A DNA stretch of 64,000 nucleotides from Bacillota bacterium. Lineage in GTDB: Bacteria > Bacillota_I > Bacilli_A > RF39 > UBA660. The DNA lies in the NCBI GenBank assembly GCA_015059335.1, contig SVAP01000004.1, positions 20,258-84,257 of the forward strand, written 5' to 3'. Both the position numbers and the translations under genes were made by a program. Shown here piece by piece: positions 1,225-25,681 of the stretch. The notes under the pieces are model-generated. The model saw only the letters and a list, made by a program, of their open reading frames with translations. It was not told the DNA's origin and did no database searches. The stretch's first letter is position 1, and every line of letters begins with the position of its first letter.

Positions 1225-1462
1225 TAATATAGATTGAATTGCCACTATAATAACATACTATTATGTTGTTATAAATAACAACATGAATATGTATGTCTTC
1301 TTTTAAAATAAACAAATCGCTTTGTAATGATGAAAGAATTTTAACTAGAGAATATAATTTTGACAAGTTTTAAACTTGTCTTTTTCTCATATTTTAACAA
1401 TTATTTCTTTTTTCACCAAATTGGGCATTATATGATATAATACTAATGAGGATGTGATTCTA

Positions 1463-2551
1463 TTGAGAGCAATAGTATGTGGTGGTGGAACTGGTGGACA
1501 TATATATCCAGCGCTTGCAATAATCAACAAGATAAAAGAAAAAGAACCAAATAGTGAATTTTTATATATAGGTACTCATAATAGAATGGAAAAAGATATA
1601 ATACCTAAATATGATATAGATTATGTTGGAATAGAAATGTATGGATTAAAAAGAAAATTATCTATATCTAATGTTAAAACATTATATTGTTATATGAATG
1701 CTTTTAAAAAGTGTAAAAAAGTAATCAAAAATTTTAATCCTGATGTTGTAATTGGTGTAGGTGGATATATAACTGATCCAGTAATATCTACAGCAAAAAA
1801 GCTGGGTTATAAAACTTTTATACATGAACAAAATAGTATTCCTGGTTTATCAAATAGACATTTAGAAAAATTCGCAGATAAAATTGCGATATCTTTTGAA
1901 AGCTCTAAAAAGTATTTTAAAAATCCAGAAAAAATAGTATATACAGGTAATCCATGTGGTGAAAATGCATTACAAGCAAAAAAAATAGATAAGAAAGAAC
2001 TTGGTTTAACTCCAAATAAAAAACTGGTTTTAATAGTAATGGGGTCTCTTGGTTCATCTAAGGTAAATGATATTATTACTACAATGTTACCTATGTTTAA
2101 TGAACGTGATTATGAAATCTTATTTGTAACTGGAAAAAATTATTATGAAAAGATAACTAACAAATTAAAAGTTCCTAAAAATGTTAAGATTGTTCCTTAT
2201 ATAGATAATATGACTAGAGTTATGAAGACAACTGATTTAATGGTTTCAAGGGCAGGAGCTTCTACTATGAGTGAAATTATGTCTTTAGAGGTACCAACTA
2301 TATTTATACCTAGTCCATATGTAACTGATAATCATCAATATAAAAATGCAAATGATTTAGTAAAAACTGGTGCGGCATTATTAATTGAAGAAGAAAATTT
2401 AAAAGGTGATATTTTAGTTAGAACTATTGATGAATTATTTAGAGATAAGAGAAAATATAATAAACTTAAAGAAAATTTAAAAGATATAGGAGTTAAAGGA
2501 AGCTCAGAAAAAATTTACAAAATGTTAAAAGAACTTGTAGAGGAGAAGTAA
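1463..2551 (+). CDS. murG: Undecaprenyl-PP-MurNAc-pentapeptide GlcNAc transferase MurG
   Basis: GGGTGGHIYP, HEQN, GNP, GSLGS, SRAGAST and HQYKNA motifs; TTG start at 1463 chosen from RBS spacing (track starts at 1454). Confidence 0.97.
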   Translation: MRAIVCGGGTGGHIYPALAIINKIKEKEPNSEFLYIGTHNRMEKDIIPKYDIDYVGIEMYGLKRKLSISNVKTLYCYMNAFKKCKKVIKNFNPDVVIGVGGYITDPVISTAKKLGYKTFIHEQNSIPGLSNRHLEKFADKIAISFESSKKYFKNPEKIVYTGNPCGENALQAKKIDKKELGLTPNKKLVLIVMGSLGSSKVNDIITTMLPMFNERDYEILFVTGKNYYEKITNKLKVPKNVKIVPYIDNMTRVMKTTDLMVSRAGASTMSEIMSLEVPTIFIPSPYVTDNHQYKNANDLVKTGAALLIEEENLKGDILVRTIDELFRDKRKYNKLKENLKDIGVKGSSEKIYKMLKELVEEK

Positions 2552-2552
2552 C

Positions 2553-3458
2553 ATGAAGAATATAAAAAAGATACTTGAAGATAAAAACATAGGTGAAATT
2601 TTAGAAAATGAATCGCTAAAAAAATATAATACTTATAAAATTGGTGGGGTAGCTAATTTAGTTGTCATTCCTAAAAATGTAGAAAAATTAATAGAATTGA
2701 TGAACATCATAAGAGAAAATAATATTAAGTATAAAGTAATAGGTAAGGGTTCTAATTTGATTTTTTCATCTAAAGAATACAATGGAATTATAATAAAACT
2801 TGATAAATTAGATAAACTTGAAATTAATGGAACTAAAATAACAGTAGGTGCTGGATATAGTTTAGTAAAACTATCATTAGAAACCGCTAAGAGAGGACTT
2901 TCAGGTTTAGAATTTGCAGCTGGTATTCCAGGTACAGTAGGTGGTTCTGTATTTATGAATGCTGGGGCATATAAAAACGATATTGGAGAATTAATTGAAA
3001 AAGTTAAACTTATAGATGATAATTTAAATATTGTTGAAATGAGTAAAGAAGAATTAGATTTTAGCTATAGACATTCATTTTTACAAAATCATAGAGATTA
3101 TATATGCATAGAAGTTACTTTAAACTTAGTAGAAGCTAATGTTGATGAGATAAAAGAAAAAATCAATAAGAGAAAACAAAAAAGATTAGAAACGCAACCA
3201 TTAGAATATCCTTCAGCTGGAAGTGTATTTAGAAATCCAGAAGATATTCCAGCTGGAAAATTAATAGAAGATGCAGGTTTAAAAGGTAAAATGATTGGTG
3301 GAGCTATGGTTAGTGAAAAACATGCAAATTTTATAATAAATTACAATAATGCGACAGGTGAAGATATATATAATTTAATTAATTATGTGAAAAATGAAAT
3401 AAAACAACAAACGGGGGTAGAATTAAAACAAGAACAAGAATTTGTTAATTGGGAGTAG
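2553..3458 (+). CDS. murB: UDP-N-acetylmuramate dehydrogenase MurB
   Basis: GKGSNL, GIPGTVGG..MNAGAY, PSAGSVFRNP, KHANF motifs. Confidence 0.97.
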   Translation: MKNIKKILEDKNIGEILENESLKKYNTYKIGGVANLVVIPKNVEKLIELMNIIRENNIKYKVIGKGSNLIFSSKEYNGIIIKLDKLDKLEINGTKITVGAGYSLVKLSLETAKRGLSGLEFAAGIPGTVGGSVFMNAGAYKNDIGELIEKVKLIDDNLNIVEMSKEELDFSYRHSFLQNHRDYICIEVTLNLVEANVDEIKEKINKRKQKRLETQPLEYPSAGSVFRNPEDIPAGKLIEDAGLKGKMIGGAMVSEKHANFIINYNNATGEDIYNLINYVKNEIKQQTGVELKQEQEFVNWE

Positions 3459-3464
3459 ATAATA

Positions 3465-4163
3465 ATGGCTACAGTAAAGGTTAAAAGAAAAAAATTAAGA
3501 ATTGGAATAGTTTTTTTAGTATTAATAATGTTATCCTTATTTGCATATCTAGGTTACTATTTATTTGAAAATACAATAGATGATAGAATTAAAAACATAT
3601 ATGTAATCGGAAATAAATATACTAAAGATTATGAAATTATTGAACTTGCCAAGATTAATAATTATCCTAGATTTCTTTCCATATCATCAAATGAAATGGA
3701 AAGAAGAATCAAGACTAATCCTTTTATAAAGGAAGTAGATGTAAAAAAGAAATTTGGAAATCAAATATACATTTATATTACTGAATATAATCCATTATTT
3801 TATGATAGAAATAATCAAAAATTAATATTAGAAACTAATAAAGATTTAGTTGTTGAGAAAATGATAGATGATATTCCTACACTTATTAATCCTGTAACTG
3901 ATGAATCTGTATATAAAAATTTAATAACAAAATTTATAAAAATAAATGATGAAGTTAAACAAAAAATTTCAGAAATAAATTATATACCAAATGAAGTAGA
4001 TAAAGAAAGATTTTTATTTTCAATGAAAGATGGAAATTATGTTTATATTACACTAACTAAAATAGAAGAAGTTAATAAATACTTAGATGTATTAAGTACT
4101 TTAAACAATAAAAAAGGAGTCTTATATTTAGATTCTGGAAATTATTTTGAAATATTAAATTAA
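3465..4163 (+). CDS. divIB: Cell division protein FtsQ/DivIB
   Basis: Basic N-terminus, single TM, POTRA-like segment; sits between murB and ftsA. Confidence 0.8.
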   Translation: MATVKVKRKKLRIGIVFLVLIMLSLFAYLGYYLFENTIDDRIKNIYVIGNKYTKDYEIIELAKINNYPRFLSISSNEMERRIKTNPFIKEVDVKKKFGNQIYIYITEYNPLFYDRNNQKLILETNKDLVVEKMIDDIPTLINPVTDESVYKNLITKFIKINDEVKQKISEINYIPNEVDKERFLFSMKDGNYVYITLTKIEEVNKYLDVLSTLNNKKGVLYLDSGNYFEILN

Positions 4164-4176
4164 ATTGGTGAAGTAA

Positions 4177-5250
4177 ATGAAGAAAAGAAGAAAAAGGAAA
4201 AAAAAGATTAAATTAATAATCGTTGTAATTATTATAGTAATAGTAGTATTAGGTTTTTTATATTTAAATTATGAACCATTAAAACTAAAATATATAGGTT
4301 ATACAGATAATGAAATAAAAATTATATTTGATAAGTTAGGCGATAATGAAATTAAAAAGGTTTTATCTAGTAAATATTTAGAAAATTTAGTATTAGTTAT
4401 TAATGATGAAAGATATGATTATAATAAATTTGATGAGTATATTACTATGATTGAAGATGGTAAAACTTTGGATGAAATTTATTATGTTGAAAAAGAAAAT
4501 AATGATGTGATTATAGAACAAGAAGATAATGATGTAGAAACTAAATTTAAAACTGCTAAATATTATATTGACGCTAACATTGATAGATATTTAAATTATT
4601 TAAATGAAAACCCAAATAAGAATATTGATGAAGTTATTAGATGTGTTAATTCTAATATTGATTATGAATTTTATACTAATGTAACTGCGACTGATATGAC
4701 TGAAGGGCACTTGATTTTAGTAAATAAATATACAAAGTTAGACAAAAATTATATTCCAAATCTAGTAACTATGAGTAATGTATATTCATATGGTAATATG
4801 CAGATGGAGAAAACTGCATATGAATATTTCAAAAAAATGGTTGATTCTGCTAAAGATGATGGAATAAAGTTATATAATATTTCATCATATAGAAGTTATG
4901 ATACACAAAATTATTTGTATAATAATTATGTTAATAGCGATGGAAAAAAAGCAGCTGATACATTTTCAGCACGTGCTGGATATTCAGAACATCAAACAGG
5001 ACTTGCAACAGATATAAATACAGCTAATTCTTCTGATCATTTTGAAAATACTAAAGAATATAAATGGTTAATAAATAATTCATATAAATATGGTTTTATT
5101 CTTAGATATCCACAGGGTAAAGAATATATTACTGGTTATAAATTTGAACCATGGCATTATAGATATGTTGGATTAGAAGTAGCTAAATATATTAAAGAAC
5201 ACAATATTACGTTTGAAGAGTATCACGCATATTTTATTAAAAATAAATAA
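4177..5250 (+). CDS. M15B (VanY/LdcB-like) D-Ala-D-Ala carboxypeptidase, membrane anchored
   Basis: SSYRSY, SARAGYSEHQTGLATD, EPWHYRYVG motifs; N-terminal TM. Confidence 0.9.
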   Translation: MKKRRKRKKKIKLIIVVIIIVIVVLGFLYLNYEPLKLKYIGYTDNEIKIIFDKLGDNEIKKVLSSKYLENLVLVINDERYDYNKFDEYITMIEDGKTLDEIYYVEKENNDVIIEQEDNDVETKFKTAKYYIDANIDRYLNYLNENPNKNIDEVIRCVNSNIDYEFYTNVTATDMTEGHLILVNKYTKLDKNYIPNLVTMSNVYSYGNMQMEKTAYEYFKKMVDSAKDDGIKLYNISSYRSYDTQNYLYNNYVNSDGKKAADTFSARAGYSEHQTGLATDINTANSSDHFENTKEYKWLINNSYKYGFILRYPQGKEYITGYKFEPWHYRYVGLEVAKYIKEHNITFEEYHAYFIKNK

Positions 5251-5254
5251 AATT

Positions 5255-5282
5255 AAACTACTGTACAAGTTGCAGTAGTTTT
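5255..5282 (+). terminator. Intrinsic terminator
   Basis: AAACTACTG/CAGTAGTTT stem after the peptidase stop codon. Confidence 0.7.
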
Positions 5283-5388
5283 GTTATAATATATTTCATA
5301 GGAATAATGCCCCGTATAAATGTTCTATTTTTATTTTTTTAAATTTATTGTATAATAAATATTATAAATGAGGAGAGTTGGTCTATCT

Positions 5389-6633
5389 ATGAAGAAAATA
5401 TATACGAGTATAGATATTGGTTCAGATAGTATCAAAATGGTAACTGCTGAAATATATAAAGGTAAAATAAATATTTTAGCTTCAACTGCTATAAAATCTG
5501 AAGGAATCAAAAAAGGGTTAATTGTAGATGCTGCTAAAGCAATTATTTCGATAAAAGAAGCATTAACAAGTATAGAAAATATGTTGGGTATCAAAATAAA
5601 TAAAGTAATTGCGTCAGTCCCTGCTAATGGTGCAGAGTTTGCGTTAGTAGATGGATACTCAACAATTACCAATGAAGAGAAAAAAGTAACAGGAAACGAT
5701 ATTATTAGATGTTTACAAGCCTGTGTTTATAATAAAATATCAGAAGATAGGGAATTAATTACTGTTGTACCAATAGAGTTTGCGTTGGATGGTGAAACTG
5801 GAATTAAAGATCCTAAAAATTTAATTGGTGAAAGATTAGGAGTTAAAGCAATAATGATAACTACTCCTAAAAAGAATGTTTATTCAGTAATTAGTGTTTT
5901 AGAAAATGTAGGATTAGAAGTCATTGATGTTGTGTTTAATTCAATAGGTGATTACTATCAGTTTAAAAATCAAAATATAGATTCTTGTGTTTCAGGAATA
6001 ATAAATATTGGAGCAGAAACTACAACTGCATCAGTATTTAATAAGGGAATATTAATGAATACTAAAGTAATTAATATCGGTGGTAAAAATATAGATAAAG
6101 ATATTACTTATGTATATAGATTAAATTTAAGAGATAGTAGAAAACTAAAAGAAAGTTTTGCAGTAGCTCATAAGAGATTTTCTAAAGTTAATGAAACGTT
6201 TGATATCATTAATAATGAAGGTGAAAGTCTAAAAATCAATCAATATGAAATTTCTGAAATTTGTATGGATAGATTAATGGAAATTATAAAAATTGTAAAA
6301 AATGAAATAAAAGACTTAACAAACAAAGAAATAAGTTATATAATTATTACAGGAGGAACTAGTGAGTTCTCTGGTTTTAACACATTATTAAATGAGTTTA
6401 TTAATAAAAATATTACGATAGCTGATATGAATACTATTGGCGTACGAAAAAATAGATTTTCTTCTTGTGTTGGAATGATAAAATACTTCAATGAAAAGAT
6501 GAAACTTAGAGGTAGAAATTATTCAATGTTAGATGAAGAAAAACAAGAAGAATTAGTATCAATTAAAAAGAAAAATAACTTTTCTAGTAATTCAATAATT
6601 GGAAAAGTATTCGGTCATTTTTTAGATAATTAG
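5389..6633 (+). CDS. ftsA: Cell division protein FtsA
   Basis: [25 protein letters not shown] actin-like motifs; precedes ftsZ; ATG 5389 follows AGGAGAG. Confidence 0.95.
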
Positions 6634-6644
6634 GGAGGCACGTT

Positions 6645-7736
6645 ATGTTTGGATTAGAAATGGATCAATTAGCAAAAATAAAGGTAATAGGTGTTGGTGG
6701 TGGAGGTAATAATGCTGTAAACCGAATGATAGAATCTGGAGTTAAAGGTGTTGAGTTCATTGTTGCAAACACTGACTTACAAGTGTTAAATGCTTCAAAA
6801 GCTCCAATTAAAATTCAATTAGGTGTATCCTTAACTGATGGATTAGGTGCTGGATCAAACCCAGAAGTTGGTAGAGAAGCAGCATTAGAGTCTAAAAAGG
6901 AAATTGAAGAAATTTTAAAAGGTGCTGACATGGTGTTTGTTACTTGCGGTATGGGTGGTGGAACTGGTACCGGTGCTGCTCCTGTAATTGCTGAAATCGC
7001 ACAAGATTTAGGTGCATTAACAGTTGGTATTGTTACAAAACCATTTAGTTTTGAAGGTAGAAAAAGAATGGAACACGCAATGGGTGGTCTAGAAGAATTA
7101 AAAAAACATGTAGATACACTAATTGTTATTCCAAATGATAGATTAAGAGAAATAATTGATAGATCTACTCCAATGCTTGAAGCATTTAGAGAAGTAGATA
7201 ACGTGTTAAGACGTGGTGTTCAATCAATATCTGACTTAATAGCAGTAGCTGGGTTAGTTAACCTTGACTTTGCTGATGTTAAAACAGTTATGAAAGATAG
7301 AGGAAACGCTGTAATTGGTATAGGTATTGGTGTAGGTGAAAATAGAGCTATTGAAGCTGCTAAACAAGCGGTATCAAGTCCATTATTAGAAACATCTATA
7401 TCTGGTGCAACTGATGCTATTATAAATATTACTGGTGGTGGTAACTTAACGTTATTTGAAGCAGAAGATGCTGCTCAAATAGTTAGAGAAGCTGCTAATA
7501 CTGAAATCAATACAATATTCGGTGCAGTAATTAATGAAAACTTAACTGATGAAGTTATTGTTACAGTAATCGCAACAGGTTTTGAAGAACCAGCTGAACC
7601 ATTATATCAATCATATACTAATCAAAAAAGAGAAGAAGTAAGAAGTACAAGAAGTACTTTACCATTAGATAATGATGATGACGATGATTCTGATTTAGAT
7701 ATCCCTCCATTCTTAAGAAGCAAAAGAGGATTTTAA
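6645..7736 (+). CDS. ftsZ: Cell division protein FtsZ
   Basis: [20 protein letters not shown] tubulin signature, NLDFADV, C-terminal DIPPFLR. Confidence 0.99.
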
Positions 7737-7747
7737 TGAATTTAAAG

Positions 7748-7782
7748 ACAGTAATTAAAGTGATATTAATTACTGTTTTTTT
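7748..7782 (+). terminator. ftsZ intrinsic terminator
   Basis: ACAGTAATT/AATTACTGT stem followed by a T-tract. Confidence 0.75.
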
Positions 7783-8433
7783 ATGTAAACCGTGTCAAAA
7801 GGGATTGACTATAAATAGATAAGTCATGTATAATTTAAATATAATAGAAGGAGTGATAAAAATGGAAGAAAATAAAAATAGTAAAAGTATTATATTTTCA
7901 ATCGTAGCTGTATTACTGTTAGTTGTAGTAGTAGCAGGAGCAACATATGCATACTTTGCATCTTCATCAAGTACAGCTAAACAAGAAATTAAAACAGGAT
8001 CATTGGCAATGGGATTCACTAATGGAGAATTCTTAAGAGCAGATTCATTAATGCCAATATCAGACAGTGAAATCAAAACAAAAGCAGCAGAATTAGATTT
8101 TTCTGTAACAAACCAAGGTACAGAACATATGAATCTAACAATAAGTCTAACAGATATCGAAATATCAGATGATTTAAAAGATGTAGACTTTAGATGGGGA
8201 TTATACAACAAAGATAAAGACTTAGGTATAGCATTTGGTATATTTGAAGATATAGGAACACAAACAAGTGTAACATTATTAACAGATACAATAATAGATG
8301 CAGTACTAGATGAAAATGAAGAAGACATAACAAAAAACTATACATTAAGAGTATGGATACATGATGATGGAGCAAATCAAAATTACATGCAAGGAGAAAC
8401 ATTCAGTGCGAAAGTTACTGTAGATGGTGAACC
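7773..8433 (+). repeat. Direct repeat copy 1 (promoter plus N-terminal TasA-like domain), nearly identical to 15573-16234
   Basis: Alignment by eye at offset ~7801 shows only scattered substitutions. Confidence 0.95.
7805..7834 (+). promoter_or_regulatory. SigmaA-type promoter with overlapping TGACT-N11-AGTCA inverted repeat
   Basis: TTGACT-18-TATAAT; the same architecture is conserved upstream of copy 2 (~15606-15635). Confidence 0.6.
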
Positions 8434-9196
8434 AGTTAAATATACACCAGAAGAATGTTTTGATTTCGATTTAACTACTGGAACAATTACAGGATATGAT
8501 ACTGATTGGCAAGGAACGACATGTAGAACAGATAAGGTAGATGGAGTAGATGAATTAGCTGTTGTAATACCTAAAACTATAGATGGTGTTACTGTTACTA
8601 AAATTGGCGAAAATGTTATGAATTTTGTTGAAGGAAATCCATATGTCGATTTCTATAATTATTCAATAAATAAAGTGATATTACCTGATACTATTACACA
8701 GATTGGTGATGGCGCTATCAGTTATAATGTTTTAAATCATTTAACCATTCCTGATAGTGTTACTGATATAGGAAGTATGTACGCTGTAGCGATTGATGTT
8801 ACAATTCCAGAAAGTGTAACATCAGGTAGTTTCAGTGCTACATTTTATGGTGATGAGATTGTTGAATCAGATACTTTGGTAATTCCTGGTTCAATGGCTA
8901 CAATAGTGGAAAGTGCATTTGGTGAAAGTAGATTTGAGAAAATTATATTAATGGAAGGTATTACTACTATTGAAAAAATAGCATTTAGCGGTGCTTATGG
9001 TATAACAAGTATTGAAATACCATCAACTGTTACAACTATTGGTGAAAAAGCGTTTGTTGATGGTAATGACTATGGAAAAGATATGACACAAATAATAGTA
9101 CGTGGTAAAACAAGTATACCAAGTACATTTGATGAAAATTGGAATTGTAAAAATGACGGATGTACTGAAAGATACAATGTAGTATTTAGACCATAA
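7862..9196 (+). CDS. SipW-class signal peptide, TasA/camelysin-like N-domain plus BspA-like (LRR_5) leucine-rich-repeat surface protein, copy 1
   Basis: VVAGATYAYF signal, NQNYMQGETF, repeated IPxSVTxIG / LPDTITQIG; ATG 7862 follows AGAAGGAGTGA. Confidence 0.8.
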   Translation: MEENKNSKSIIFSIVAVLLLVVVVAGATYAYFASSSSTAKQEIKTGSLAMGFTNGEFLRADSLMPISDSEIKTKAAELDFSVTNQGTEHMNLTISLTDIEISDDLKDVDFRWGLYNKDKDLGIAFGIFEDIGTQTSVTLLTDTIIDAVLDENEEDITKNYTLRVWIHDDGANQNYMQGETFSAKVTVDGEPVKYTPEECFDFDLTTGTITGYDTDWQGTTCRTDKVDGVDELAVVIPKTIDGVTVTKIGENVMNFVEGNPYVDFYNYSINKVILPDTITQIGDGAISYNVLNHLTIPDSVTDIGSMYAVAIDVTIPESVTSGSFSATFYGDEIVESDTLVIPGSMATIVESAFGESRFEKIILMEGITTIEKIAFSGAYGITSIEIPSTVTTIGEKAFVDGNDYGKDMTQIIVRGKTSIPSTFDENWNCKNDGCTERYNVVFRP

Positions 9197-9212
9197 TTAA
9201 AACTAAAGAAGC

Positions 9213-9587
9213 TTATGCTTCTTTTTGTTTGCCTTGTTTTCCAATAATTCCACCAGTCATTGATGAGATGATAAGTATTAAATAATATATTAAGTTTTTC
9301 CACTCAAATGGTGTATTAAAGCCTAGTAATACTACTAATAACATAAATATACTAATAATAGAACCAATTTTTAAACCTTCAAATATTCCTCTTTTTTTAC
9401 TTCTTTTAGAAAGATAAAATCCACTAAAGATAAATGTACCTATTATTAGAATCATTTGGATAATATTTAAAAAATTATCACTAATAATATTAAAATAATT
9501 TAACAAGGTAAATAAAAACATACCAATTATAATAGTTAAAAATACATACATAATATCTTTTAAATAAACTTTTAACATATAAATCAC
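9213..9587 (-). CDS. TIGR04086/YrzE-like membrane protein
   Basis: Four hydrophobic helices, SKKRGIFEG and GGIIG motifs; divergent from the DUF421 gene as in Bacilli. Confidence 0.7.
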   Translation of the reverse strand: MIYMLKVYLKDIMYVFLTIIIGMFLFTLLNYFNIISDNFLNIIQMILIIGTFIFSGFYLSKRSKKRGIFEGLKIGSIISIFMLLVVLLGFNTPFEWKNLIYYLILIISSMTGGIIGKQGKQKEA

Positions 9588-9653
9588 CTAATAAATCGTA
9601 TGTTATTGAATAAATTTATATTACACCACCCATAACTGTATTAGGTGATATAT

Positions 9654-10304
9654 ATGAATTATATGGCTGTTATTTTTAGAACTGTATTCTTTTATTTTGT
9701 TGTTTTAATATTATATAGGGTTATGGGTAAAAGGGAAGTTGGTCAACTTGGAATTGTAGATTTAATTGTATCAATACTTATTTCACAATTAGTTGCGATT
9801 AGTATAGAAAACTATGATGATACTATATTGATGTCTTTGATTCCTATTGTACTATTAACTTTTCTTCAGCTTGGGCTTGCATATTTAGCTTTAAAGGTGC
9901 CTAAAACTAGAAGTTTTTTAGATGGTAAGCCTTCTGTCTTAATTAAACATGGAAGAATAAATTTTAAAGAAATGTGTAGGCAAAAATATAATTTAGATGA
10001 CTTATTGATGCAGTTAAGAGAAAATGGAGTAAGGAATTTAGAAGAGGTAGAATACGCTATATTGGAGACTAGTGGAAATCTATCATTGTTTAAAAAAAAT
10101 ATATTAAAGATACCTACAGATTATCCTTTTGCGATAATTGTAGATGGCAAAATACAAGATGATATATTAAAAGAAATTAATAGGAGTAGAGATTGGATAC
10201 AAAATATATTAGATAAGAAGAGGATAAAAGTTGATGATGTTTTTTATGCGTTTTATAAGGGGTCAAAAACTTTTATAATTAGGAAAAGTGAATTATTAAA
10301 TTAA
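9654..10304 (+). CDS. DUF421 (YrbG/YetF-like) membrane protein
   Basis: MGKREVGQL, DGKPSVLIKHG, QLRENG..VEYAILETSGNLS. Confidence 0.9.
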   Translation: MNYMAVIFRTVFFYFVVLILYRVMGKREVGQLGIVDLIVSILISQLVAISIENYDDTILMSLIPIVLLTFLQLGLAYLALKVPKTRSFLDGKPSVLIKHGRINFKEMCRQKYNLDDLLMQLRENGVRNLEEVEYAILETSGNLSLFKKNILKIPTDYPFAIIVDGKIQDDILKEINRSRDWIQNILDKKRIKVDDVFYAFYKGSKTFIIRKSELLN

Positions 10305-10386
10305 ACTAAATTTTAAGCACATTAGTGCTCTTTTTTTTGTTTCGTGTTATACTATATATATAAATAGTAGTCAGTGAGGTAAAATA

Positions 10387-11664
10387 ATGTTTGAAGAGGG
10401 AAAAAAATATAAATTAAGTATAATTAGACAGGAAACTACAGGTAATGGAGTTGCTAAATACAATAAATTTCCAGTGTTTATTCCATATGGATTACCTGGG
10501 GAATTAGTAGAAGTTAAAATAAATAAATTAAAGAAAAATTACGCTAATGGAGAAATTATAAAACATATAACTAATTCTAAAGATAGAGTAAAACCACCAT
10601 GCCCATATTATTATCAATGTGGTGGTTGTGATTTGATGCATCAAGATTATAATGCTAGTTTGGAATTCAAGAAAAAGAATTTAATAGAGTTACTATATAA
10701 ATTTGCTAAAGTAAATTCTAATTTAATAAAGCTAAATAGTGTGGTTAAAGCTGAAGATAATTTTTATTATAGAAATAAAGTTACATTTCATGTTGAAAAT
10801 AATAAAATTGGTTTTTATAAAGAAGATACTAATGAACTTGTAGAAATTAATGAATGTATAATTATAAATCCTATCTTTAATATTGCATTAAAAGTAATAA
10901 AAAAATATTTAAAGGATAGTAATATAAAAACGGTTGTAATGAAGTATGGGGAATACACTAAAGAGTTAATGGTTATTTTTGAAACAGATAAGGATTTGAA
11001 TCTTAAGTTGATAGAGGATTTAAAATCAAAAATAAAAGTTTTAAAAAGTATATATACTTCAAATAAAAATAAACATAAATTAATATATGGAAGTGAATAT
11101 ATTACTGAGAAATTATTGGATAAAACTTTTAGAATAACACCTAAATCTTTTTTTCAAGTAAATACTAAACAAATTGAAAAGTTATTTTCTAATATTCAAA
11201 AATATATTACAGATAATGATATAAATATATTAGATTTATATTGTGGGACAGGTGTAATTAGTATTTTGATTGGTGATAAGAGTAGGAAGATATTAGGAGT
11301 AGATATAGTAAAAGAAGCTATTGATGCCGCAAATATTAATAAAGAAATTAATGATTGTAATAATATTGAGTTTATATCCTCTAATGTTAAAAATGTACTT
11401 CCTGTAATAAAGAAAGCTAATAAGAATTTGGATGTTATTATACTTGATCCTCCAAGAAGTGGAATTGATAAAGATAGTATAGAAATTATTAATGAATTAT
11501 TACCTAAGAAAATAATATATGTTTCATGTAATCCAGTAACTTTAACTAGAGATTTAAATATATTAAAAGCTAATTATGACATTAAAGAAATAACACCATA
11601 TGATTTATTTCCTATGACACATCATGTAGAAACTTTAACTTTGTTACAAATTAAGGAAAATTAG
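10387..11664 (+). CDS. rlmD: 23S rRNA m5U methyltransferase RlmD/RlmCD
   Basis: TRAM domain, CPYYYQCGGC, SFFQVN, LDLYCGTG, LDPPRSG, YVSCNP, DLFPMTHHVE. Confidence 0.93.
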   Translation: MFEEGKKYKLSIIRQETTGNGVAKYNKFPVFIPYGLPGELVEVKINKLKKNYANGEIIKHITNSKDRVKPPCPYYYQCGGCDLMHQDYNASLEFKKKNLIELLYKFAKVNSNLIKLNSVVKAEDNFYYRNKVTFHVENNKIGFYKEDTNELVEINECIIINPIFNIALKVIKKYLKDSNIKTVVMKYGEYTKELMVIFETDKDLNLKLIEDLKSKIKVLKSIYTSNKNKHKLIYGSEYITEKLLDKTFRITPKSFFQVNTKQIEKLFSNIQKYITDNDINILDLYCGTGVISILIGDKSRKILGVDIVKEAIDAANINKEINDCNNIEFISSNVKNVLPVIKKANKNLDVIILDPPRSGIDKDSIEIINELLPKKIIYVSCNPVTLTRDLNILKANYDIKEITPYDLFPMTHHVETLTLLQIKEN

Positions 11665-11750
11665 TGTTTTTAAAAAATATAAAAATAATAAAAAAAACTT
11701 GCATTTTTGATAAAAACTGTTAAAATAGATGCTGTAAAGGGAGTGTTTGT

Positions 11751-13022
11751 ATGAATAAATTTTTCAAGAAGTTTAATTCAGCTGAGTGTGTTGGCATAAT
11801 TATACTTGCATTATTAGTAGTTTTTGCAGGATATATGGTTTACAATCATAAAGATTTTAAAGTTAATACTACTACAAAATCAGAATCTAATAATAAAAAT
11901 TTATCTGGTTATTATTATGATGATTATTATGATGATTATTATGACTACGAAGATGATTACTATTATGATGATGACTACTACTATGATTATGAAGATGACT
12001 ATTATTACGATGATGAAGATTATTATTACGACTATGACTATGATTATGATTATAAATATGTAAATAATAAATATTATGATGATTACAGATATTATGATTA
12101 TAATGATAAAAATGCGCCATCAATTAGATTAGACGCTATTGGTGTTGTAATTCAATATCAAGATTTTGATCCGATGAATGGTGTTAGTGCTAGTCATTCA
12201 AAATACGGTGATATGACTGATGATATTGAAATAATATATAACAATGTTGATACTGATGTTCCAGGTACATACAGTGTTGTATATAAAGTATGTAATTATC
12301 CAGGTTCAGATTATTGTAGATCTACTTCTAGAAATGTAATTGTAAGAAGTATAGATTATGATAATCAATTTGGATATGAAGACTATGATAGAGAACCTAT
12401 ATGGAGTAATACAAAATCAGTAACTTGTAAACAAGGTTCTACAAAATGTAGTACTTCTAAAGTAGAAAAACCTACTGCAAAAGATCCTAATACAAATAGA
12501 GAATTAAGAGTAAAATTAATCGATGGTTATGTAGATATTGAAACACCAGATACTTATGTATTAGTTTATAGTGCAGAAACATCATATGGTGTTGTTGGTA
12601 CAGTTTCTAAATTAGTAATTATTGAAAGAGATTACTCATATGATTATGATTACGATTATGATTATGATTATGACTACGATTATAATATGAAAAGTAAATT
12701 TATAGATAATTATAAATGGACAAATAAAGTTACTTATACTTATCAATGTAGTGTTGAAGGACAATATGGTTTAAATGGTTGGTCTTTAGTTTCAACTGAT
12801 AAGTCAAATGGTCAATATTCTTCAAGTGCTGATAATCATCCAACATACTATTACAGTAAAAATGGATATTCTGGAACTTTAAATAAAGTTGATTTCTATT
12901 TACAAGATTCAGAAGATAAATTAACTAATGATTTAGGTTATTGTAATACAGTTGGTCAAACTAAACAAGTGGTTAGAACTTGGGTTGGTTTATATTCAGG
13001 ATTTGTATATAATTACAATTAA
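11751..13022 (+). CDS. Membrane-anchored Tyr/Asp-repeat protein with two DUF5011/Ig-like domains
   Basis: N-terminal TM, YD tracts, VDTDVPGTYSVVYKV and VDIETPDTYVLVYSA Ig-like motifs. Confidence 0.75.
   Translation: MNKFFKKFNSAECVGIIILALLVVFAGYMVYNHKDFKVNTTTKSESNNKNLSGYYYDDYYDDYYDYEDDYYYDDDYYYDYEDDYYYDDEDYYYDYDYDYDYKYVNNKYYDDYRYYDYNDKNAPSIRLDAIGVVIQYQDFDPMNGVSASHSKYGDMTDDIEIIYNNVDTDVPGTYSVVYKVCNYPGSDYCRSTSRNVIVRSIDYDNQFGYEDYDREPIWSNTKSVTCKQGSTKCSTSKVEKPTAKDPNTNRELRVKLIDGYVDIETPDTYVLVYSAETSYGVVGTVSKLVIIERDYSYDYDYDYDYDYDYDYNMKSKFIDNYKWTNKVTYTYQCSVEGQYGLNGWSLVSTDKSNGQYSSSADNHPTYYYSKNGYSGTLNKVDFYLQDSEDKLTNDLGYCNTVGQTKQVVRTWVGLYSGFVYNYN
11910..12110 (+). repeat. Low-complexity TAT/GAT tract encoding YD/YYD repeats (second tract 12630-12686)
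   Basis: TATGAT-type repeats read directly in the sequence. Confidence 0.9.
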
Positions 13023-13157
13023 AAGTGTATGAAAATACACTTTTTTTCTTTTGTAATAAAAAAATAAATTATGTAAACTAAGTGTATAATTATCATTAAA
13101 GTCTAAACTTGAATTTTAAAGAGTGTTATAATATATATGTAGAAATTTAATTTTTGT

Positions 13158-13193
13158 TACTACTTTGTATAGTTTGTACATATAAATTAATAG
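13158..13193 (+). promoter_or_regulatory. SigmaE-like promoter upstream of murE
   Basis: TACTACT-14-CATATAAAT; 17-mer TACATATAAATTAATAG shared with the spoVE upstream region. Confidence 0.5.
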
Positions 13194-13205
13194 GTGGCGA
13201 GTAAT

Positions 13206-14573
13206 ATGATAAATATAAAAACTAATTCAAAATTAATTAAACCAGGTGATACATTTATAGCTATTAAAGGTTTAAATAGAGATGGACATGATTATATAGA
13301 ATCAGCTATAGAAAATGGTGCATCAACTATTATATGTGAACACGGAAATTATAGTGTTAATACTGTAGTAGTGCCTGATACATATAAGTTTTTAAGAGAG
13401 TATTTATATACTAATTATTATGATAAAATTAAAGATTTGAAAATAATAGGAATGACTGGAACAAATGGTAAAACAACAAGTTGTTATCTTTTATATCAAG
13501 CATTTAAAAAGTTAAATAAAAAATGCGGATATATTGGAACAATAGGATTTTATATAGATGAAAAAGTACGTGATTTAGACAATACTACACCTGAAATCCA
13601 AGATGTTTATGAAATGTTATTAGAGTGTTCAGAAAATAATTGTGAATATGTTGTGATGGAAGTTAGTAGTCATGCGCTTGCTTTAGGTAGAGTTGATACA
13701 TTAAGCTTTGATTATGCAATATTCTCAAACCTTACTGATGATCATTTAGATTTTCATAAAACATTTGAACATTATACTGAGTCAAAGAAAAAATTATTTA
13801 CAATGGTAAAAAACAGTGGCGCATCAATTATAAATGTTGATGACCCTAATTATGAAAAGATAGTTAATAATAATTCTAGAAATTTGTTTTTTGGATTTAA
13901 TAATTCAGAATATAAAATATTAGGTTATGAGTATATAGATTATAAAACACATTTTAATGTAATAATTAACGGAAAAGAAGAAAAATTTATTACTAAGTTA
14001 TTAGGAAAATATAATATACATAACATGATGGGTGTTATATTGGTATTAAATGATTTAAAGATAGATATAGAAAAGATTAAAGAGATTGTTAGTGAAATAA
14101 ATTATCCTCCAGGTAGAATGGATACAGTTAAACATAACAAATCATTAATAATAGTAGATTATGCACATACTCCAGATGCAGTATTAAATGTTATAAGTTG
14201 TGTTAGAGAGTATACTAAAGGAAAAATTTATTCAATAATTGGTTGTGGCGGTAATAGAGAAAAAACTAAAAGACCACTAATGGCAAAAGGCGCAACTGAT
14301 TTATCAGATTATGTTATTATCACTAATGATAATCCTAGATTTGAAGATCCTAAAGAAATAATTAAAGATATGACTAATGGATTAGATAATACTAATTATG
14401 AAATTTGTGAAGATAGAGTAGAAGCAATTCATAAAGGAATAGATATGCTTAAAGATAATGATGTTTTACTAATATTAGGTAAGGGTCATGAGGATTATCA
14501 AATAATTGGTGATGTAAAACATCATCATGATGATAAAGAATGTGTAGTAGAATATATAGATAAGGTGATGTAA
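13206..14573 (+). CDS. murE: UDP-MurNAc-dipeptide:diamino acid ligase MurE
   Basis: GMTGTNGKTT, MEVSSHAL, NLTDDHLDFH, VDYAHTPDA, DNPR (meso-DAP-type motif), GKGHEDYQ. Confidence 0.96.
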   Translation: MINIKTNSKLIKPGDTFIAIKGLNRDGHDYIESAIENGASTIICEHGNYSVNTVVVPDTYKFLREYLYTNYYDKIKDLKIIGMTGTNGKTTSCYLLYQAFKKLNKKCGYIGTIGFYIDEKVRDLDNTTPEIQDVYEMLLECSENNCEYVVMEVSSHALALGRVDTLSFDYAIFSNLTDDHLDFHKTFEHYTESKKKLFTMVKNSGASIINVDDPNYEKIVNNNSRNLFFGFNNSEYKILGYEYIDYKTHFNVIINGKEEKFITKLLGKYNIHNMMGVILVLNDLKIDIEKIKEIVSEINYPPGRMDTVKHNKSLIIVDYAHTPDAVLNVISCVREYTKGKIYSIIGCGGNREKTKRPLMAKGATDLSDYVIITNDNPRFEDPKEIIKDMTNGLDNTNYEICEDRVEAIHKGIDMLKDNDVLLILGKGHEDYQIIGDVKHHHDDKECVVEYIDKVM

Positions 14574-14575
14574 AA

Positions 14576-15556
14576 ATGTTATTACTTACTAAAACAGTAC
14601 TATCTGTAATGATTGGATTTTTATTAGCAACAACATTAGGATTAATTTTAATACCTCTTTTAAAGAAATTAAATGTTAAACAAAGCCTTAGTATATATAT
14701 GGAAGAAGCACATAGAAAAAAAAGTGGTACTCCTACTATGGGTGGTTTAATATTTCTAATACCAACTGTTGCAACTATATTTATTCTTTATTTTATGAAT
14801 AAAATAGAAATAACAACAAATTTGTTGATGGTATTATTTGTGCTTATTGCATATGCGCTTATAGGATTTATAGATGATTATTTAATAATTAGAAGACATA
14901 ATAATAAGGGACTTACAGAAGTACAAAAATTATTAGGACAAGTAATAATTGCGATTGTTTTCTTCTTTATGTTTCTAAAAACAGGTGGAGAAACCTCTTT
15001 AGTAATATCTACTCTTGGAATAAATATTCAAATGGGATGGCTTTATGGTTTGTTTATATTATTCTTATTAGTAGGTGGTAGTAATGCAGTTAACATTACC
15101 GATGGATTAGATGGTCTTGCTGGTGGATTATCAGCTATTGCATTTATTGCGTTTGGTCTTATTTCTCTAAACTGTGGATATGAAGATATTGGTATATTTT
15201 GTTTTATACTTTGTGGAGCACTTATGGGATTCTTGATATTTAATATTCATCCCGCAAAAATATTTATGGGTGATACTGGTTCTTTAGCTTTAGGTGCTAC
15301 TTTAGCAACTATAGCAATTCTTGTTAGAAGAGAACTAACACTTGTTATAGTAGCAGGAGTATTTATAATAGAAACATTAACCGTAATAATCCAAATACTA
15401 TGGGTTAAATTATTTCATAAAAGATTATTCTTAATGACACCTTTACATCATCATTTTGAAAAGCTTGGATGGAGTGAAGTGGATATAGTTAAATTATTTT
15501 GGACAATAGGCTTAACATTATGTATGGCTGGAATATTCTTTGGAGTATGGTTATAA
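14576..15556 (+). CDS. mraY: Phospho-MurNAc-pentapeptide translocase MraY
   Basis: KKSGTPTMGG, GFIDDY, NAVNITDGLDGL, FMGDTGSLALG, PLHHHFE. Confidence 0.98.
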   Translation: MLLLTKTVLSVMIGFLLATTLGLILIPLLKKLNVKQSLSIYMEEAHRKKSGTPTMGGLIFLIPTVATIFILYFMNKIEITTNLLMVLFVLIAYALIGFIDDYLIIRRHNNKGLTEVQKLLGQVIIAIVFFFMFLKTGGETSLVISTLGINIQMGWLYGLFILFLLVGGSNAVNITDGLDGLAGGLSAIAFIAFGLISLNCGYEDIGIFCFILCGALMGFLIFNIHPAKIFMGDTGSLALGATLATIAILVRRELTLVIVAGVFIIETLTVIIQILWVKLFHKRLFLMTPLHHHFEKLGWSEVDIVKLFWTIGLTLCMAGIFFGVWL

Positions 15557-15572
15557 ACAGATAATAATTTAT

Positions 15573-16234
15573 CTGTTTTTTTGTGTAAACTTGCGTCAAA
15601 AAGGATTGACTAAAAATAGATAAGTCATGTATAATTTAAATATAATAGGAGGAGTGATAAAAATGGAAGAAAATAAAAATAGTAAAAGTATTATATTTTC
15701 AATCGTAGCTGTATTACTGATAGTTGTAGTAGTAGCAGGAGCAACATATGCATACTTTGCATCTTCATCAAGTACAGCTAAACAAGAAATTAAAACAGGA
15801 TCATTGGCAATGGGATTCACTAATGGAGAATTCTTAAGAGCAGATTCATTAATGCCAATATCAGACAGTGAAATCAAAACAAAAGCAGCAGAATTAGATT
15901 TTTCTGTAACAAACGAAGGTACAGAACATATGAATCTAACAATAAGTCTAACAGATATCGAAATATCAGATGACTTAAAAGATGTAGACTTTAGATGGGG
16001 ATTATACAATAAAGATAAAGACTTAGGTATAGCATTTGGAATATTCAAAGATATCGGTACAAATACAAGTGTAACATTATTAACAGATACAATAATAGAT
16101 GCAGTACTAGATGAAAATGAAGAAGACATAACAAAAAACTATACATTAAGAGTATGGATACATGACGATGGAGCAAATCAAAACTACATGCAAGGAGAAA
16201 CATTCAGTGCGAAAGTTACTGTAGATGGTGAACC
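15573..16234 (+). repeat. Direct repeat copy 2 of 7773-8433
   Basis: Near-identical sequence, beginning at the T-tract of the mraY terminator. Confidence 0.95.
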
Positions 16235-16943
16235 TATTAGTTATACACCAGAAAGTTGCTTTGGATTTAATTCAAGTACAGGTACAGTTACATCATATGA
16301 TTATGAAACATGTGGTGTAGCTGGTGTTGACGTGGTAATACCTAAATCAATAGATGGTGTTGCAGTTACAACTATTGGTAGTTCTTTTTGGTCAACTGGT
16401 GATGGACTTCCTTGGGGAACAGATGAATATATAGAATCTATGATTTTACCTGATACTATCACTAAAATTAACGACGAAGGAATTTATTATTTTGCTGCTG
16501 CGAGCGAATCGGAAATAACAATACCAGAAAGTGTAATAACTATTGGTAATAGCGGTTTTTCAGCAAGTCTTGCAAGAAATATACCAGAAAGTATAACAAC
16601 TATTGGATCATATGCATTTTATGGGAACATTTCAGCAGTTATACCTGGAAGTATCACTTCACTTTCTGAAGGTGCAATTAATGAATCTTCTGCAGAAAAT
16701 ATAATATTAATGGAAGGGATAAATGAAATCCAAGATTATGCATTATCTGGTAATTATTATGTGACTTCAATTGAAATACCGTCAAGTGTAACAACTATTG
16801 GATCAAATGCATTTGCTGATAATGAATATTTAACAGAAATAATAGTGCGTGGTAAAACAAGTGCACCAGCTACATTTGATGAGAATTGGAATTGTAAGGA
16901 TTATGATTGTACTGAACGATACAATGTAGTATTTAGACCATAA
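15663..16943 (+). CDS. SipW-class TasA-like plus BspA-like LRR surface protein, copy 2
   Basis: Same signal peptide and N-domain as copy 1, divergent LRR region, shared C-terminus CTERYNVVFRP. Confidence 0.8.
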   Translation: MEENKNSKSIIFSIVAVLLIVVVVAGATYAYFASSSSTAKQEIKTGSLAMGFTNGEFLRADSLMPISDSEIKTKAAELDFSVTNEGTEHMNLTISLTDIEISDDLKDVDFRWGLYNKDKDLGIAFGIFKDIGTNTSVTLLTDTIIDAVLDENEEDITKNYTLRVWIHDDGANQNYMQGETFSAKVTVDGEPISYTPESCFGFNSSTGTVTSYDYETCGVAGVDVVIPKSIDGVAVTTIGSSFWSTGDGLPWGTDEYIESMILPDTITKINDEGIYYFAAASESEITIPESVITIGNSGFSASLARNIPESITTIGSYAFYGNISAVIPGSITSLSEGAINESSAENIILMEGINEIQDYALSGNYYVTSIEIPSSVTTIGSNAFADNEYLTEIIVRGKTSAPATFDENWNCKDYDCTERYNVVFRP

Positions 16944-16996
16944 TTAAAATATTAAAAATTCTTATATCATATGATATAGGAATTTTTTTTATATAT

Positions 16997-17032
16997 AAAT
17001 ACTTTGTCTTATTTTTACATATAAATTAATAG
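16997..17032 (+). promoter_or_regulatory. SigmaE-like promoter upstream of spoVE/ftsW
   Basis: AAATACT-14-CATATAAAT matches the B. subtilis sigmaE consensus pattern; spoVE is sigmaE-controlled in B. subtilis. Confidence 0.55.
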
Positions 17033-17056
17033 ATGCTTGAAAGTAAGGTGTGAAAT

Positions 17057-18148
17057 GTGAAAAAAATAAATTTTGATTTAATATTGATTGCTGCTGTAAT
17101 AATATTATCTATATTTGGTGTAGTAATGATATATTCATCATCGAGTGTTTGGGCAGAGTATAAATTTGGAGATTCATTCAAATATTTAAAATCACAATCT
17201 TTATTTTTGATAGTTGGTATTGTACTAATGATTATAGTTTCTAAATACAATTATAAACAATATAAAAAACACGCTAATATCATACTTGGAGTTTGTTTTA
17301 TATTATTAATTTTAGTAATAATACCTGGTATTGGTACAGTAAGAAATGGCTCTAGAAGTTGGTTTGGTATTGGACCTTTTGGTATTCAACCTAGTGAATT
17401 TATGAAGCTTGCACTCATAATATTTACTGCCAAATATTTAGAAAAAAATAATAAATATATTGGTGATATTAAAAAGGGTGTATTTCCTATATTAGGTATA
17501 ACTTTAATTTCTTTTGCGCTTATTATGCTTCAACCAGATTTTGGTACTGGAACAATTTTAGTTATGACTATTATTTGTATGTTATTTGTTAGTGGTGTTA
17601 AAATGGGATTCTTTATGAAAATAGGTATAGTAGGTCTTATTGGGGTAGTTATTTTAATAGTTATCGCTCCTTACCGTTTACAACGTATTTTATCTTTTGT
17701 TAATCCTTGGGTGGATCCATTGGGTGCAGGATTTCAGATTATACAATCATTATACGCAATAGGTCCTGGTGGATTGCTTGGCATGGGGTTAGGTAATTCT
17801 ATTCAAAAACATTTTTATCTTCCAGAACCCCAAACAGATTTTATATTTTCGATAATTAGTGAGGAATTAGGATTTTTAGGCATTGTAATTGTTAGTGGAT
17901 TATTTTTAACTATAATTTATAGGGGAATAAAAATTGCATTAAATTCTGAAGATTTGTTTGGAAAATATTTAGCATTTGGAATGATATTTCAGCTTTCTTT
18001 TCAAGCAATTTTAAATTTAATGGTAGTTGTAGGATTAATTCCTGTAACAGGTGTTACTTTACCATTTTTAAGTTACGGAGGAAGTAGTTTGCTGATAACA
18101 ATGGTAAGTATGGGAATTTTACTTAATATATCAAGATGTCAGAAATAA
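17057..18148 (+). CDS. spoVE: SEDS family glycosyltransferase FtsW/SpoVE
   Basis: GSRSWFGIGPFGIQPSEFMK, LQPDFGT, LPEPQTDFIFSII, GVTLPFLSYGGSS; the size and sigmaE-like promoter favour SpoVE. Confidence 0.85.
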   Translation: MKKINFDLILIAAVIILSIFGVVMIYSSSSVWAEYKFGDSFKYLKSQSLFLIVGIVLMIIVSKYNYKQYKKHANIILGVCFILLILVIIPGIGTVRNGSRSWFGIGPFGIQPSEFMKLALIIFTAKYLEKNNKYIGDIKKGVFPILGITLISFALIMLQPDFGTGTILVMTIICMLFVSGVKMGFFMKIGIVGLIGVVILIVIAPYRLQRILSFVNPWVDPLGAGFQIIQSLYAIGPGGLLGMGLGNSIQKHFYLPEPQTDFIFSIISEELGFLGIVIVSGLFLTIIYRGIKIALNSEDLFGKYLAFGMIFQLSFQAILNLMVVVGLIPVTGVTLPFLSYGGSSLLITMVSMGILLNISRCQK

Positions 18149-21420: not shown

Positions 21421-21500
21421 ATGTTTGTAGGGCCTCTAACTCTACAACCGCACAGAAAAGGTTAGAAACTTTTAGTACCTTAATGGCGAGTCTTAGAATA
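21421..21500 (+). ncRNA. L21 ribosomal-protein leader RNA
   Basis: Follows TTGACT-17-TAAAAT; contains ACCGC...GGCGAGTC elements recalled from L21 leaders; lies directly before rplU; boundaries approximate. Confidence 0.7.
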
Positions 21501-21520
21501 TTAAATAAGGAGGTAATAAG

Positions 21521-25580: not shown

Positions 25581-25681
25581 TTCTAACCATTATATAAAAT
25601 TATAAATAACTATTATAGTGATATAAACATAATAACAATTCTATTATTGTTAAAAATTTGTTTTTATGTTATAATGAATAT

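Follow-up and report, generated by a model that had tools for sequence, protein, structure and literature searches.

The described systems closest to the locus considered here are two groups of surface proteins and one set of bacterial genes. TasA and CalY of Bacillus (PF12389; tapA-sipW-tasA) and the other donor-strand fibres of the TasA superfamily (AbpA, AbpX, Tafi, CanA and the Sulfolobus threads) form the first group. The donor strand of TasA directly follows the site at which SipW cleaves (PMC9674648); the superfamily fibres come with a dedicated signal peptidase (bioRxiv 10.64898/2026.01.04.697558; PMC9245690; PMC12518558), and tip or minor subunits with extra modules have been predicted for others among them (bioRxiv 10.64898/2026.01.04.697558). 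The second group comprises leucine-rich repeat (LRR) proteins of the BspA type, including those of the PDB entries 4gt6, 4fd0 and 4fdw, TpLRR of T. pallidum (6mlx) and the pneumococcal PcpA (4cp6). The genes are babA, babB and babC of Helicobacter pylori, a set of adhesin paralogs that are nearly identical at both ends and diverge in the middle; intragenomic gene conversion makes chimeras among them (PMC4552749). Here we analyse a 64-kb stretch of contig SVAP01000004.1, referred to below as the window, from an uncultured gut-type bacterium of the Bacilli class with a very AT-rich genome (GC content of 25%). The window carries two genes, copy A and copy B, each coding for a putative TasA-like N-terminal domain (N-domain) joined to a BspA-type LRR region. 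In the literature searched, we found no description of such a fusion or of a dispersed family like the one to which these genes belong.

The bab genes are the closest genetic analogue. Here too, paralogs have near-identical ends and a divergent middle, and non-reciprocal exchange is evident from a contrast in synonymous divergence and from the incongruence of gene segments, both presented below. However, the protein family and the cell envelope are unrelated, and bab has a phase-variable CT repeat and shows locus swapping among isolates, whereas our locus lacks a repeat tract, and more than 20 assemblies of it show no swapping. Systems of the pilE/pilS, vlsE and MgPa type differ in that the window has no single expression site with promoterless silent cassettes, and its LRR regions are 99.97-100% constant (contigs L112-L119).

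At the protein level, the N-domain has in common with Bacillus TasA/CalY a SipW-type signal peptide motif, a predicted beta-sandwich of ~165 amino acids (aa) matching PF12389 over nearly its full length, and a conserved segment directly past the predicted cleavage site, where TasA has its donor strand (PMC9674648). Unlike TasA/CalY, it scores just over the profile cut-offs, does not recover TasA in fold or PDB sequence searches and is fused to a C-terminal LRR, while its genes are monocistronic and scattered among housekeeping genes, with no adjacent sipW or tapA. The likeness to the other TasA-superfamily fibres is one of concept, namely a fibre-type domain carrying extra modules as predicted tip or minor subunits (bioRxiv 10.64898/2026.01.04.697558; PMC9245690; PMC12518558), and CanA gave a weak structural match to the model of the N-domain. 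Those fibres are encoded by operons with a peptidase and accessory genes, whereas here we see dispersed paralogs with a promoter each; the acidic residue at donor-strand position 4 of AbpX is absent (predicted mature end YFASSSS). The C-terminal half resembles the BspA-type LRR proteins, but these are anchored by choline-binding repeats, lipoprotein signals, LPXTG motifs or Por sorting domains, a part that the TasA-like N-domain would play here, and the C-cap ending [FY]RP also sets the present family apart. By functional analogy only, a domain for incorporation into a fibre coupled to a binding domain would recall the FimH-type two-domain adhesins of chaperone-usher pili; there is no homology, and the domain order and the assembly machinery differ.

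Our principal result is that the promoter and the first ~190 codons of copies A and B were recently overwritten by non-reciprocal homologous recombination, while their LRR regions kept an ancient divergence. The elements of the locus are arranged as follows (nt, nucleotides).

7744-7783 (+): hairpin terminator of ftsZ with its T-run (inverted repeat with 15-nt arms, 93% complementary); the direct repeat begins in its 3' arm/T-tract
7773-8500 (+): homogenised 5' module of copy A (promoter, 5' untranslated region, signal peptide, N-domain and start of the linker), delimited by alignment to 15573-16301
7794-7809 (+): palindrome GTCAA-N6-TTGAC across the -35 box of copy A, a candidate operator
7805-7834 (+): sigma-70-type promoter of copy A, TTGACT-18-TATAAT (11/12 match)
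7862-9196 (+): coding sequence of copy A, 444 aa
9078-9202 (+): conserved 3' block of copy A, ending 6 nt past the stop codon, 86% identical to 16825-16949; right-hand unit boundary TAATTAAAA
9205-9224 (no strand): bidirectional terminator common to copy A and the convergent DUF3792 gene
9213-15556: unique inter-repeat segment with genes for DUF3792 (-), DUF421/YetF, a TRAM-tRNA(U5) methyltransferase and a 423-aa protein with an immunoglobulin-like (Ig-like) domain, then murE and mraY
15555-15582 (+): hairpin terminator of mraY (AAACAGATAA-TAAT-TTATCTGTTT) with its T-run
15573-16301 (+): homogenised 5' module of copy B (promoter 15606-15635, palindrome 15595-15610)
15663-16943 (+): coding sequence of copy B, 426 aa, with the architecture of copy A and a divergent LRR
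16825-16949 (+): conserved 3' block of copy B; Logan contigs start at 16920
16949-17000 (+): AT-rich terminator hairpin with T8 after copy B (inverted repeat with 25-nt arms, 88% complementary)

Both genes are monocistronic and appear in the list of open reading frames (ORFs) of the window on the plus strand, at 7826-9196 and 15627-16943. The direct repeat (7773-8500 versus 15573-16301, spacing 7801 bp) is 94.7% identical over 729 nt and 99% identical over its first 300 nt. Its near-identical part reaches from about -75 relative to the ATG to about codon 190 (~650 bp), the longest perfect run being 194 nt (7920-8113), and 35 positions inside the module differ between the copies. In the last 42 nt of the 3' block (TGTACTGAA[A/C]GATACAATGTAGTATTTAGACCATAATTAAAA), one base differs. 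Between these ends, the LRR middle has ~55% identity in DNA and 49% in protein. A search of the window found neither a third copy nor further fragments.

Synonymous divergence (dS, Nei-Gojobori) between A and B, computed segment by segment, is 0.027 for codons 1-120, 0.36 for a 20-codon patch (codons 121-140) and 0.07 for codons 141-190; it amounts to 0.57 in the linker, 1.08 in the LRR, where it is saturated, and 0.32 in the C-terminal tail. The non-coding promoter and the 5' untranslated region are common to both copies as well. A 40-fold contrast (0.027 versus 1.08) is unattainable by selection on the protein and, therefore, indicates recent homogenisation, by conversion between direct repeats that lie 7.8 kb from each other. 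Since homology extends to the LRRs and tails, and yet the synonymous sites of the LRR are saturated, A and B are old paralogs rather than recent duplicates. The same identical ends and variable middle in an adhesin-like protein could also be read as a single recent duplication of the whole gene, after which selection drove the LRRs apart very fast. Such a history is exceedingly unlikely, as saturated synonymous sites in the LRR (1.08) next to a nearly unchanged N-domain (0.027) already refute it.

An earlier note on this DNA had reported two genes 7801 bp apart with near-identical promoter, signal-peptide and N-domain DNA, a near-identical 3' end and a divergent LRR, and had placed the beginning of both copies at the T-tract of an upstream terminator. 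Our alignments agree with the former; the hairpins and the alignment agree with the latter, as both 5' repeats start at the T-run of a terminator, that of ftsZ (7744-7780) and that of mraY (15555-15576). The repeats also flank murE-mraY, as the note had pointed out, and their orientation is direct, which means that essential genes would be lost in any deletion between them. It had further supposed that the copies are kept homogeneous by gene conversion or cassette swapping; the dS contrast and the shared promoter support gene conversion, whereas the invariant LRRs speak against cassette swapping.

These results depend on the repeat having been assembled correctly. We gathered contigs of independent assemblies by exact-identity look-ups with the FtsZ, MraY, DUF421 and FtsW proteins of the window; the samples of these assemblies resemble related series and may share one strain. 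Both loci were recovered at 99.8-100% identity in more than 20 of these assemblies. Twenty contigs with the exact FtsZ enter the module from ftsZ, and all stop at 8002-8060; ~15 contigs, 7.6-7.96 kb long, coincide exactly with the inter-repeat segment; the breaks fall within the perfectly identical 194-nt run. Contig L112 runs continuously through murE, mraY, module B and its LRR at 99.83% identity to the window, and contigs L113-L119, covering the 3' sides, are 99.97-100% identical to it from 7983 or 15721 on.

Four contigs, each switching partner inside the repeat, pair the flanks differently. L007 joins the 3' end of mraY to the LRR of copy A; L008 has an unidentified upstream flank followed by an L004-type module and then the LRR of copy B with ftsW; L004 follows L001 at 99.6% identity over 10.6 kb, as far as the end of the N-domain, and is unrelated beyond; and L018 combines the upstream flank of L005 with the downstream flank of L001, crossing over inside the N-domain. 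True recombinants and assembler chimeras predict the same sequence in such cases. We rejected L007 as a real arrangement, since it implies a cycle leading from mraY to copy A and on through murE back to mraY; it must be a chimera or else the junction of a rare circle or duplication.

One might take L007, together with the fact that the module breaks every short-read assembly, as a sign that the window itself contains a collapsed or mis-joined repeat. However, four junctions (ftsZ to the module; the module through the LRR of A to DUF3792; mraY through module B to its LRR, in L112; and the LRR of B to ftsW) were independently reproduced at 99.8-100%, and 35 differences separate A and B within the module. 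The only alternative pairing of flanks, that of mraY with the LRR of A, closes a cycle through murE-mraY, so the arrangement in the window is consistent. An artefact, for which the earlier note had allowed, is ruled out for practical purposes by the recurrence of the junctions in the assembled contigs of more than 20 independent assemblies, and we regard it as next to inconceivable.

Contig L112 also bears on possible variation within the module. All six of its mismatches over 3.4 kb lie in one 71-nt patch of the module of copy B (L112 positions 2700-2771; window 15915-15985). Two of the six match the base of copy A, and the other four produce DITIS, a sequence also present in further members of the family. 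Such a patch reflects either short-tract conversion by a third paralog or an assembler's choice at a bubble.

The earlier note had gone further and proposed a possible adhesin or antigenic-variation system with interchangeable LRR modules. In a programmed form of such a system, the constant blocks would serve as recombination handles for high-frequency exchange of LRR cassettes among loci, truncated donors included. Several facts speak for it. Homology flanks the LRR on both sides (97-100% over ~650 nt on one, 86-98% over 45-125 nt on the other), L007, L008, L004 and L018 change partners within the module, some copies are 5'-truncated or frameshifted (P0013, L012, L013), and the six mismatches of L112 are confined to one patch of the module. 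The constant 5' and 3' blocks would, indeed, permit a double crossover that swaps the LRR. No such exchange is seen in the population data, however: compared at the level of assemblies, each locus has one and the same LRR in more than 20 of them, from many samples, which speaks against frequent switching. In addition, both copies in the window are full-length, with identical strong promoters (11/12) and ribosome-binding sites, and we found no promoterless silent cassettes in the window, truncated copies occurring only at other loci or in other genomes. An invertible promoter, a riboswitch and phase variation by simple-sequence repeats were each considered and rejected: no invertible-promoter repeats, simple-sequence tracts, Rfam element or riboswitch, or recombinase were found at the loci. 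As to the discordant contigs, these are paths of short-read metagenome assemblies through a 194-nt identical node, that of L007 entails an impossible cycle, and assembler chimeras would explain them. Programmed variation is, therefore, very unlikely.

With regard to expression, the promoters at 7805 and 15606 are the best matches of the region, and their identity implies that A and B are co-expressed. Translation most likely starts at the ATG at 7862 and 15663 (MEENKNSK...), because a GGAGTG ribosome-binding site lies 7 nt upstream of it, while the upstream ATG at 7826 and 15627 sits in the -10 box. Gene calls for the family members P0003 and P0006 in other assemblies also open at MEE.... The palindrome GTCAA-N6-TTGAC has two matches in the window, both at these two promoters, where 0.02 would be expected by chance, and it is kept at the family loci L001, L004 and L008. 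Overlapping the -35 box as it does, it may be an operator for a regulator. We also considered dual coding by two antisense ORFs of 177 aa under the module (7795-8328 and 15596-16129, both on the minus strand) and rejected it. The antisense frame is also open in the copies of the metagenome-assembled genome (MAG) JAZQBG01 (107-158 aa), and other shadow ORFs of 104-183 aa are present elsewhere in the window; these two are most likely shadow ORFs as well, as they lie in the wobble-on-wobble register and sense codons mostly ending in A make antisense stops rare.

Each copy is a self-contained unit, reaching from the promoter to just past the stop codon, that was inserted behind the terminator of a housekeeping operon. 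In 80 loci with MraY relatives (36-75% identity) from a metagenome scan, mraY is in most cases directly followed by ftsW; a few carry unrelated inserts at this site, and none has a gene of the TasA-like/LRR family. The scan returned no same-species contigs with MraY, the best match having 69-75% identity. Since mraY abuts ftsW in relatives, copy B is a lineage-specific insertion of a promoter-to-stop unit. Across loci of the host organism, the left boundary of the unit is TGTAAAC..GTCAAAAGGGATTGACT, ~78 nt 5' of the ATG, and the right boundary is TAATTAAAAT, 8-10 nt past the stop codon. No transposase or target duplication marks the units.

The two genes belong to a larger family. Searching with the N-domain yielded 54 close homologs, nearly all of which contain LRR_5 and measure 410-450 aa; every one of them stems from a metagenome or MAG with the label Firmicutes or Bacilli. 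Among GTDB representative genomes, a contig scan with the family alignment found the family in JAZQBG01 only, while a scan with a single sequence found none. Of the five copies in JAZQBG01, one is intact, one is interrupted by the end of its contig, one has lost its 5' part and adjoins an IS3-type transposase, and two carry frameshifts. At L012:2585-5023 of this MAG, a 5'-truncated and frameshifted copy lies next to IS3-type transposase ORFs and is a decaying paralog. In samples with the exact FtsZ and MraY of the window, further family loci follow SMC-epimerase (P0007, then a stand-alone M73-like gene of 190 aa) and a thioredoxin gene (P0013, without a signal peptide). Two proteins of 686 aa (L005:13752-15812) and 541 aa (L001:59-1684) have a related N-domain (39-44% identity) and no LRR; the former passes the SipW-substrate model, and the large C-terminal regions of both lack any Pfam match. 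The N-domain is thus also attached to cargo other than an LRR. Overall, the host probably has 5-7 TasA-LRR paralogs, provided that the additional loci come from the same organism, as is likely. A 966-aa ORF of the window, tried as a second SMC in order to separate the organism of L001 from that of the window, was rejected: it is a DUF4116 protein, and the test was uninformative.

Family-wide, mean identity is 70% for the N-domain and 37% for the LRR, and among the 50 pairs that are at least 90% identical in the N-domain, 29 fall below 60% in the LRR. The tail comes in two types, ...WNC...C... and ...GLTTEGGLPEGVN..., and these reassort independently, while all full-length members of a 42-sequence alignment (A2) end in [FY]RP. 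For instance, P0028 and P0031 are 97% identical in the N-domain, 98% in the LRR and 47% in the tail, and the N-domain groups {A, B, P0006, P0005} and {P0007, P0013} conflict with the tail groups {A, B, P0013} and {P0007}. In this lineage-restricted multi-copy family, the N-domain, LRR and tail type have been reassorted by occasional recombination. The earlier note had named the case of just two copies without mosaicism as one that would undo its proposal; with at least five copies in JAZQBG01 and mosaicism across relatives, the family is different.

Copy A can be divided into a signal peptide or transmembrane helix ending in GATYA|YF (residues 1-30), a predicted TasA/camelysin-like beta-sandwich (31-195), a Cys-containing linker or LRR N-cap (196-235), BspA-type LRR_5 repeats (236-400) and a conserved C-cap, ...RGKTS..F.ENWNC..C.ERYNVVFRP (401-444). 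The LRR half is clearly of the BspA type by both sequence and fold. Pfam LRR_5 (PF13306) scores 69.7 and 76.7 bits in the two copies against a cut-off of 27.7; the best sequence-profile matches in the PDB are 4gt6 (E 4e-32) and 4fdw (E 4e-28); and Foldseek gives a probability of 1.00 to 4fd0, 4gt6 and 6mlx, with PcpA also found, the full-length fold search being dominated by the LRR. For the N-domain, Pfam Peptidase_M73 (TasA/camelysin, PF12389) scores 23.8 bits in the whole protein and 26.4 bits in the N-domain alone, a small margin over the cut-off of 22.5, with the match spanning profile positions 5-188 of 196; of 66 relatives of the N-domain, 21 reach E<=0.01 with this profile. The NCBIfam model of the SipW-dependent signal peptide, TIGR04088 (cut-off 19), gives 20.0 bits for A, 22.4 for B and 21 for P0053. 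G26, A30 and F32 are invariant in alignment A2, and conservation across the family is highest in the segment just past the hydrophobic helix. AlphaFold monomer models show the N-domain as a jelly-roll beta-sandwich behind a long N-terminal helix (predicted local distance difference test, pLDDT, of 81 and predicted template modelling score of 0.81 at full length; pLDDT of 91 for the N-domain). Membership of the N-domain in the TasA/camelysin superfamily is thus suggested marginally, by near-full-length profile matches rather than by structure. The TasA-like/LRR architecture given in the earlier note is supported to this extent, with a clear LRR_5 and marginal TasA and SipW scores. The structure prediction that it had called for bears out a BspA-type fold in the LRR half and a beta-sandwich in the N-domain; TasA itself was not recovered, and the sipW gene that it had suggested looking for was not found in the window or beside any copy read, as detailed below.

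How might such proteins work? After export, cleavage would follow GATYA, and the N-domain would display the LRR outside the cell. Most likely, the freed N-terminal strand would be inserted as a donor strand into a TasA-like fibre, made up of the family's own members or of a separate plain subunit, and identical N-domains would keep the paralogs assembly-compatible. The pattern of variation would, according to this scheme, reflect ordinary concerted evolution with diversification of the ligand-binding part rather than a programmed switch. Fibre assembly by the N-domain is plausible, judged from sequence features. The whole of this explanation, from old paralogs and 5' conversion through ordinary concerted evolution to display of the LRR by the N-domain, has in our judgement slightly better than even chances of being correct.

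A number of observations weigh against it. TasA (5OF1/5OF2/8AUR) is absent from the top 50 PDB matches of the N-domain fold search, which consist of generic jelly-roll lectins and carbohydrate-binding modules (best E 9e-4), with weak matches to the archaeal cannula protein CanA at rank 23 and to FimG at rank 28. The PDB sequence-profile search with the N-domain alignment found no TasA, and its matches to archaeal pilins are non-significant (E 0.3-1). Neither an S26 motif nor sipW turned up in the window (64 kb) or, over ~375 kb of further sequence examined, next to any locus of the family. The four discordant contigs described above could mean more active recombination than we assume, and loci of the L001/L005 type may belong to a genome other than that of the window. 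Finally, homogenisation is not universal, since the N-domains of the JAZQBG copies are only 72-91% identical.

Some of these points would suit surface or secreted LRR receptors that do not polymerise, in which the N-domain would be just a spacer or stalk following either an ordinary signal peptide or an anchor that stays uncleaved, and homogenisation a neutral by-product of the similarity of two genes at a distance of 7.8 kb. Besides the fold search without TasA and the marginal profile scores, no sipW or tapA-like or other accessory partner gene stands beside any copy read, and the genes are monocistronic and scattered, unlike fibre operons. However, the segment after the helix is the most conserved one, with G26, A30 and F32 invariant, and it passes the SipW-substrate cut-off in A, B and P0053. 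The same N-domain, moreover, occurs as a stand-alone protein of ~185 aa in hundreds of clusters, as is typical of fibre subunits; at 50% identity, its superfamily comprises 954 clusters, many of them stand-alone and many with other C-terminal extensions. One stand-alone relative, P0076, lies on a 1.5-kb contig with no useful context. On balance, we hold a non-polymerising receptor to be unlikely, if still a serious contender.

Returning to fibre assembly, it is tempting to go one step further and suppose that the N-domain is the universal plug of a heteropolymeric TasA-type fibre. Co-expressed LRR paralogs and the 686-aa and 541-aa proteins would then co-assemble by donor-strand exchange, presenting many specificities at once, and selection for assembly compatibility would maintain conversion of the promoter and N-domain. 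This extension is doubtful, and we offer it as speculation. If true, it would describe a Gram-positive, operon-free, modular adhesive fibre of a kind absent from the literature searched.

Some features of the surroundings deserve a brief comment. The order of cell-division and cell-wall genes at 187-18148 is unusual, with murG-murB-divIB-VanY-ftsA-ftsZ 5' of murE-mraY-ftsW, five unrelated genes and the two TasA-like/LRR units interposed, and murD and murF absent between them. The 423-aa protein encoded at 11751-13022 (+) combines a bacterial surface Ig-like domain with long tracts that consist of Tyr, Asp and Glu only (YYDDYYDDYYDYEDDYYYDDD...) and correspond to 11885-12107 and 12632-12719, and its sequence is identical in other assemblies. 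At 25647-25995, a segment with no ORF of at least 100 aa is 81.6% identical to L005:6284-6631 in an unrelated locus and may be a repeated non-coding element; no Rfam family matches it at the gathering threshold. A ribosomal protein L21 leader (RF00559, 54.5 bits) lies at 21436-21503 (+), 5' of the L21-Prp-L27 genes.

Our results bear, first of all, on the genome of the host itself. The 194-nt identical core breaks every short-read assembly of the host inside its cell-division and cell-wall (dcw) gene cluster and yields chimeric contigs, which matters for genome binning. The 40-fold contrast in dS, in turn, provides a clean and quantifiable case in which concerted evolution is limited to one half of an adhesin, that for display, and the half for binding diversifies. 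If the N-domain mediates fibres, the family would show uncultured gut or rumen Bacilli building adhesive surfaces without sortase, S-layer or choline-binding anchors, and the TasA superfamily, defined only recently, would extend to subunits with binding heads of their own.

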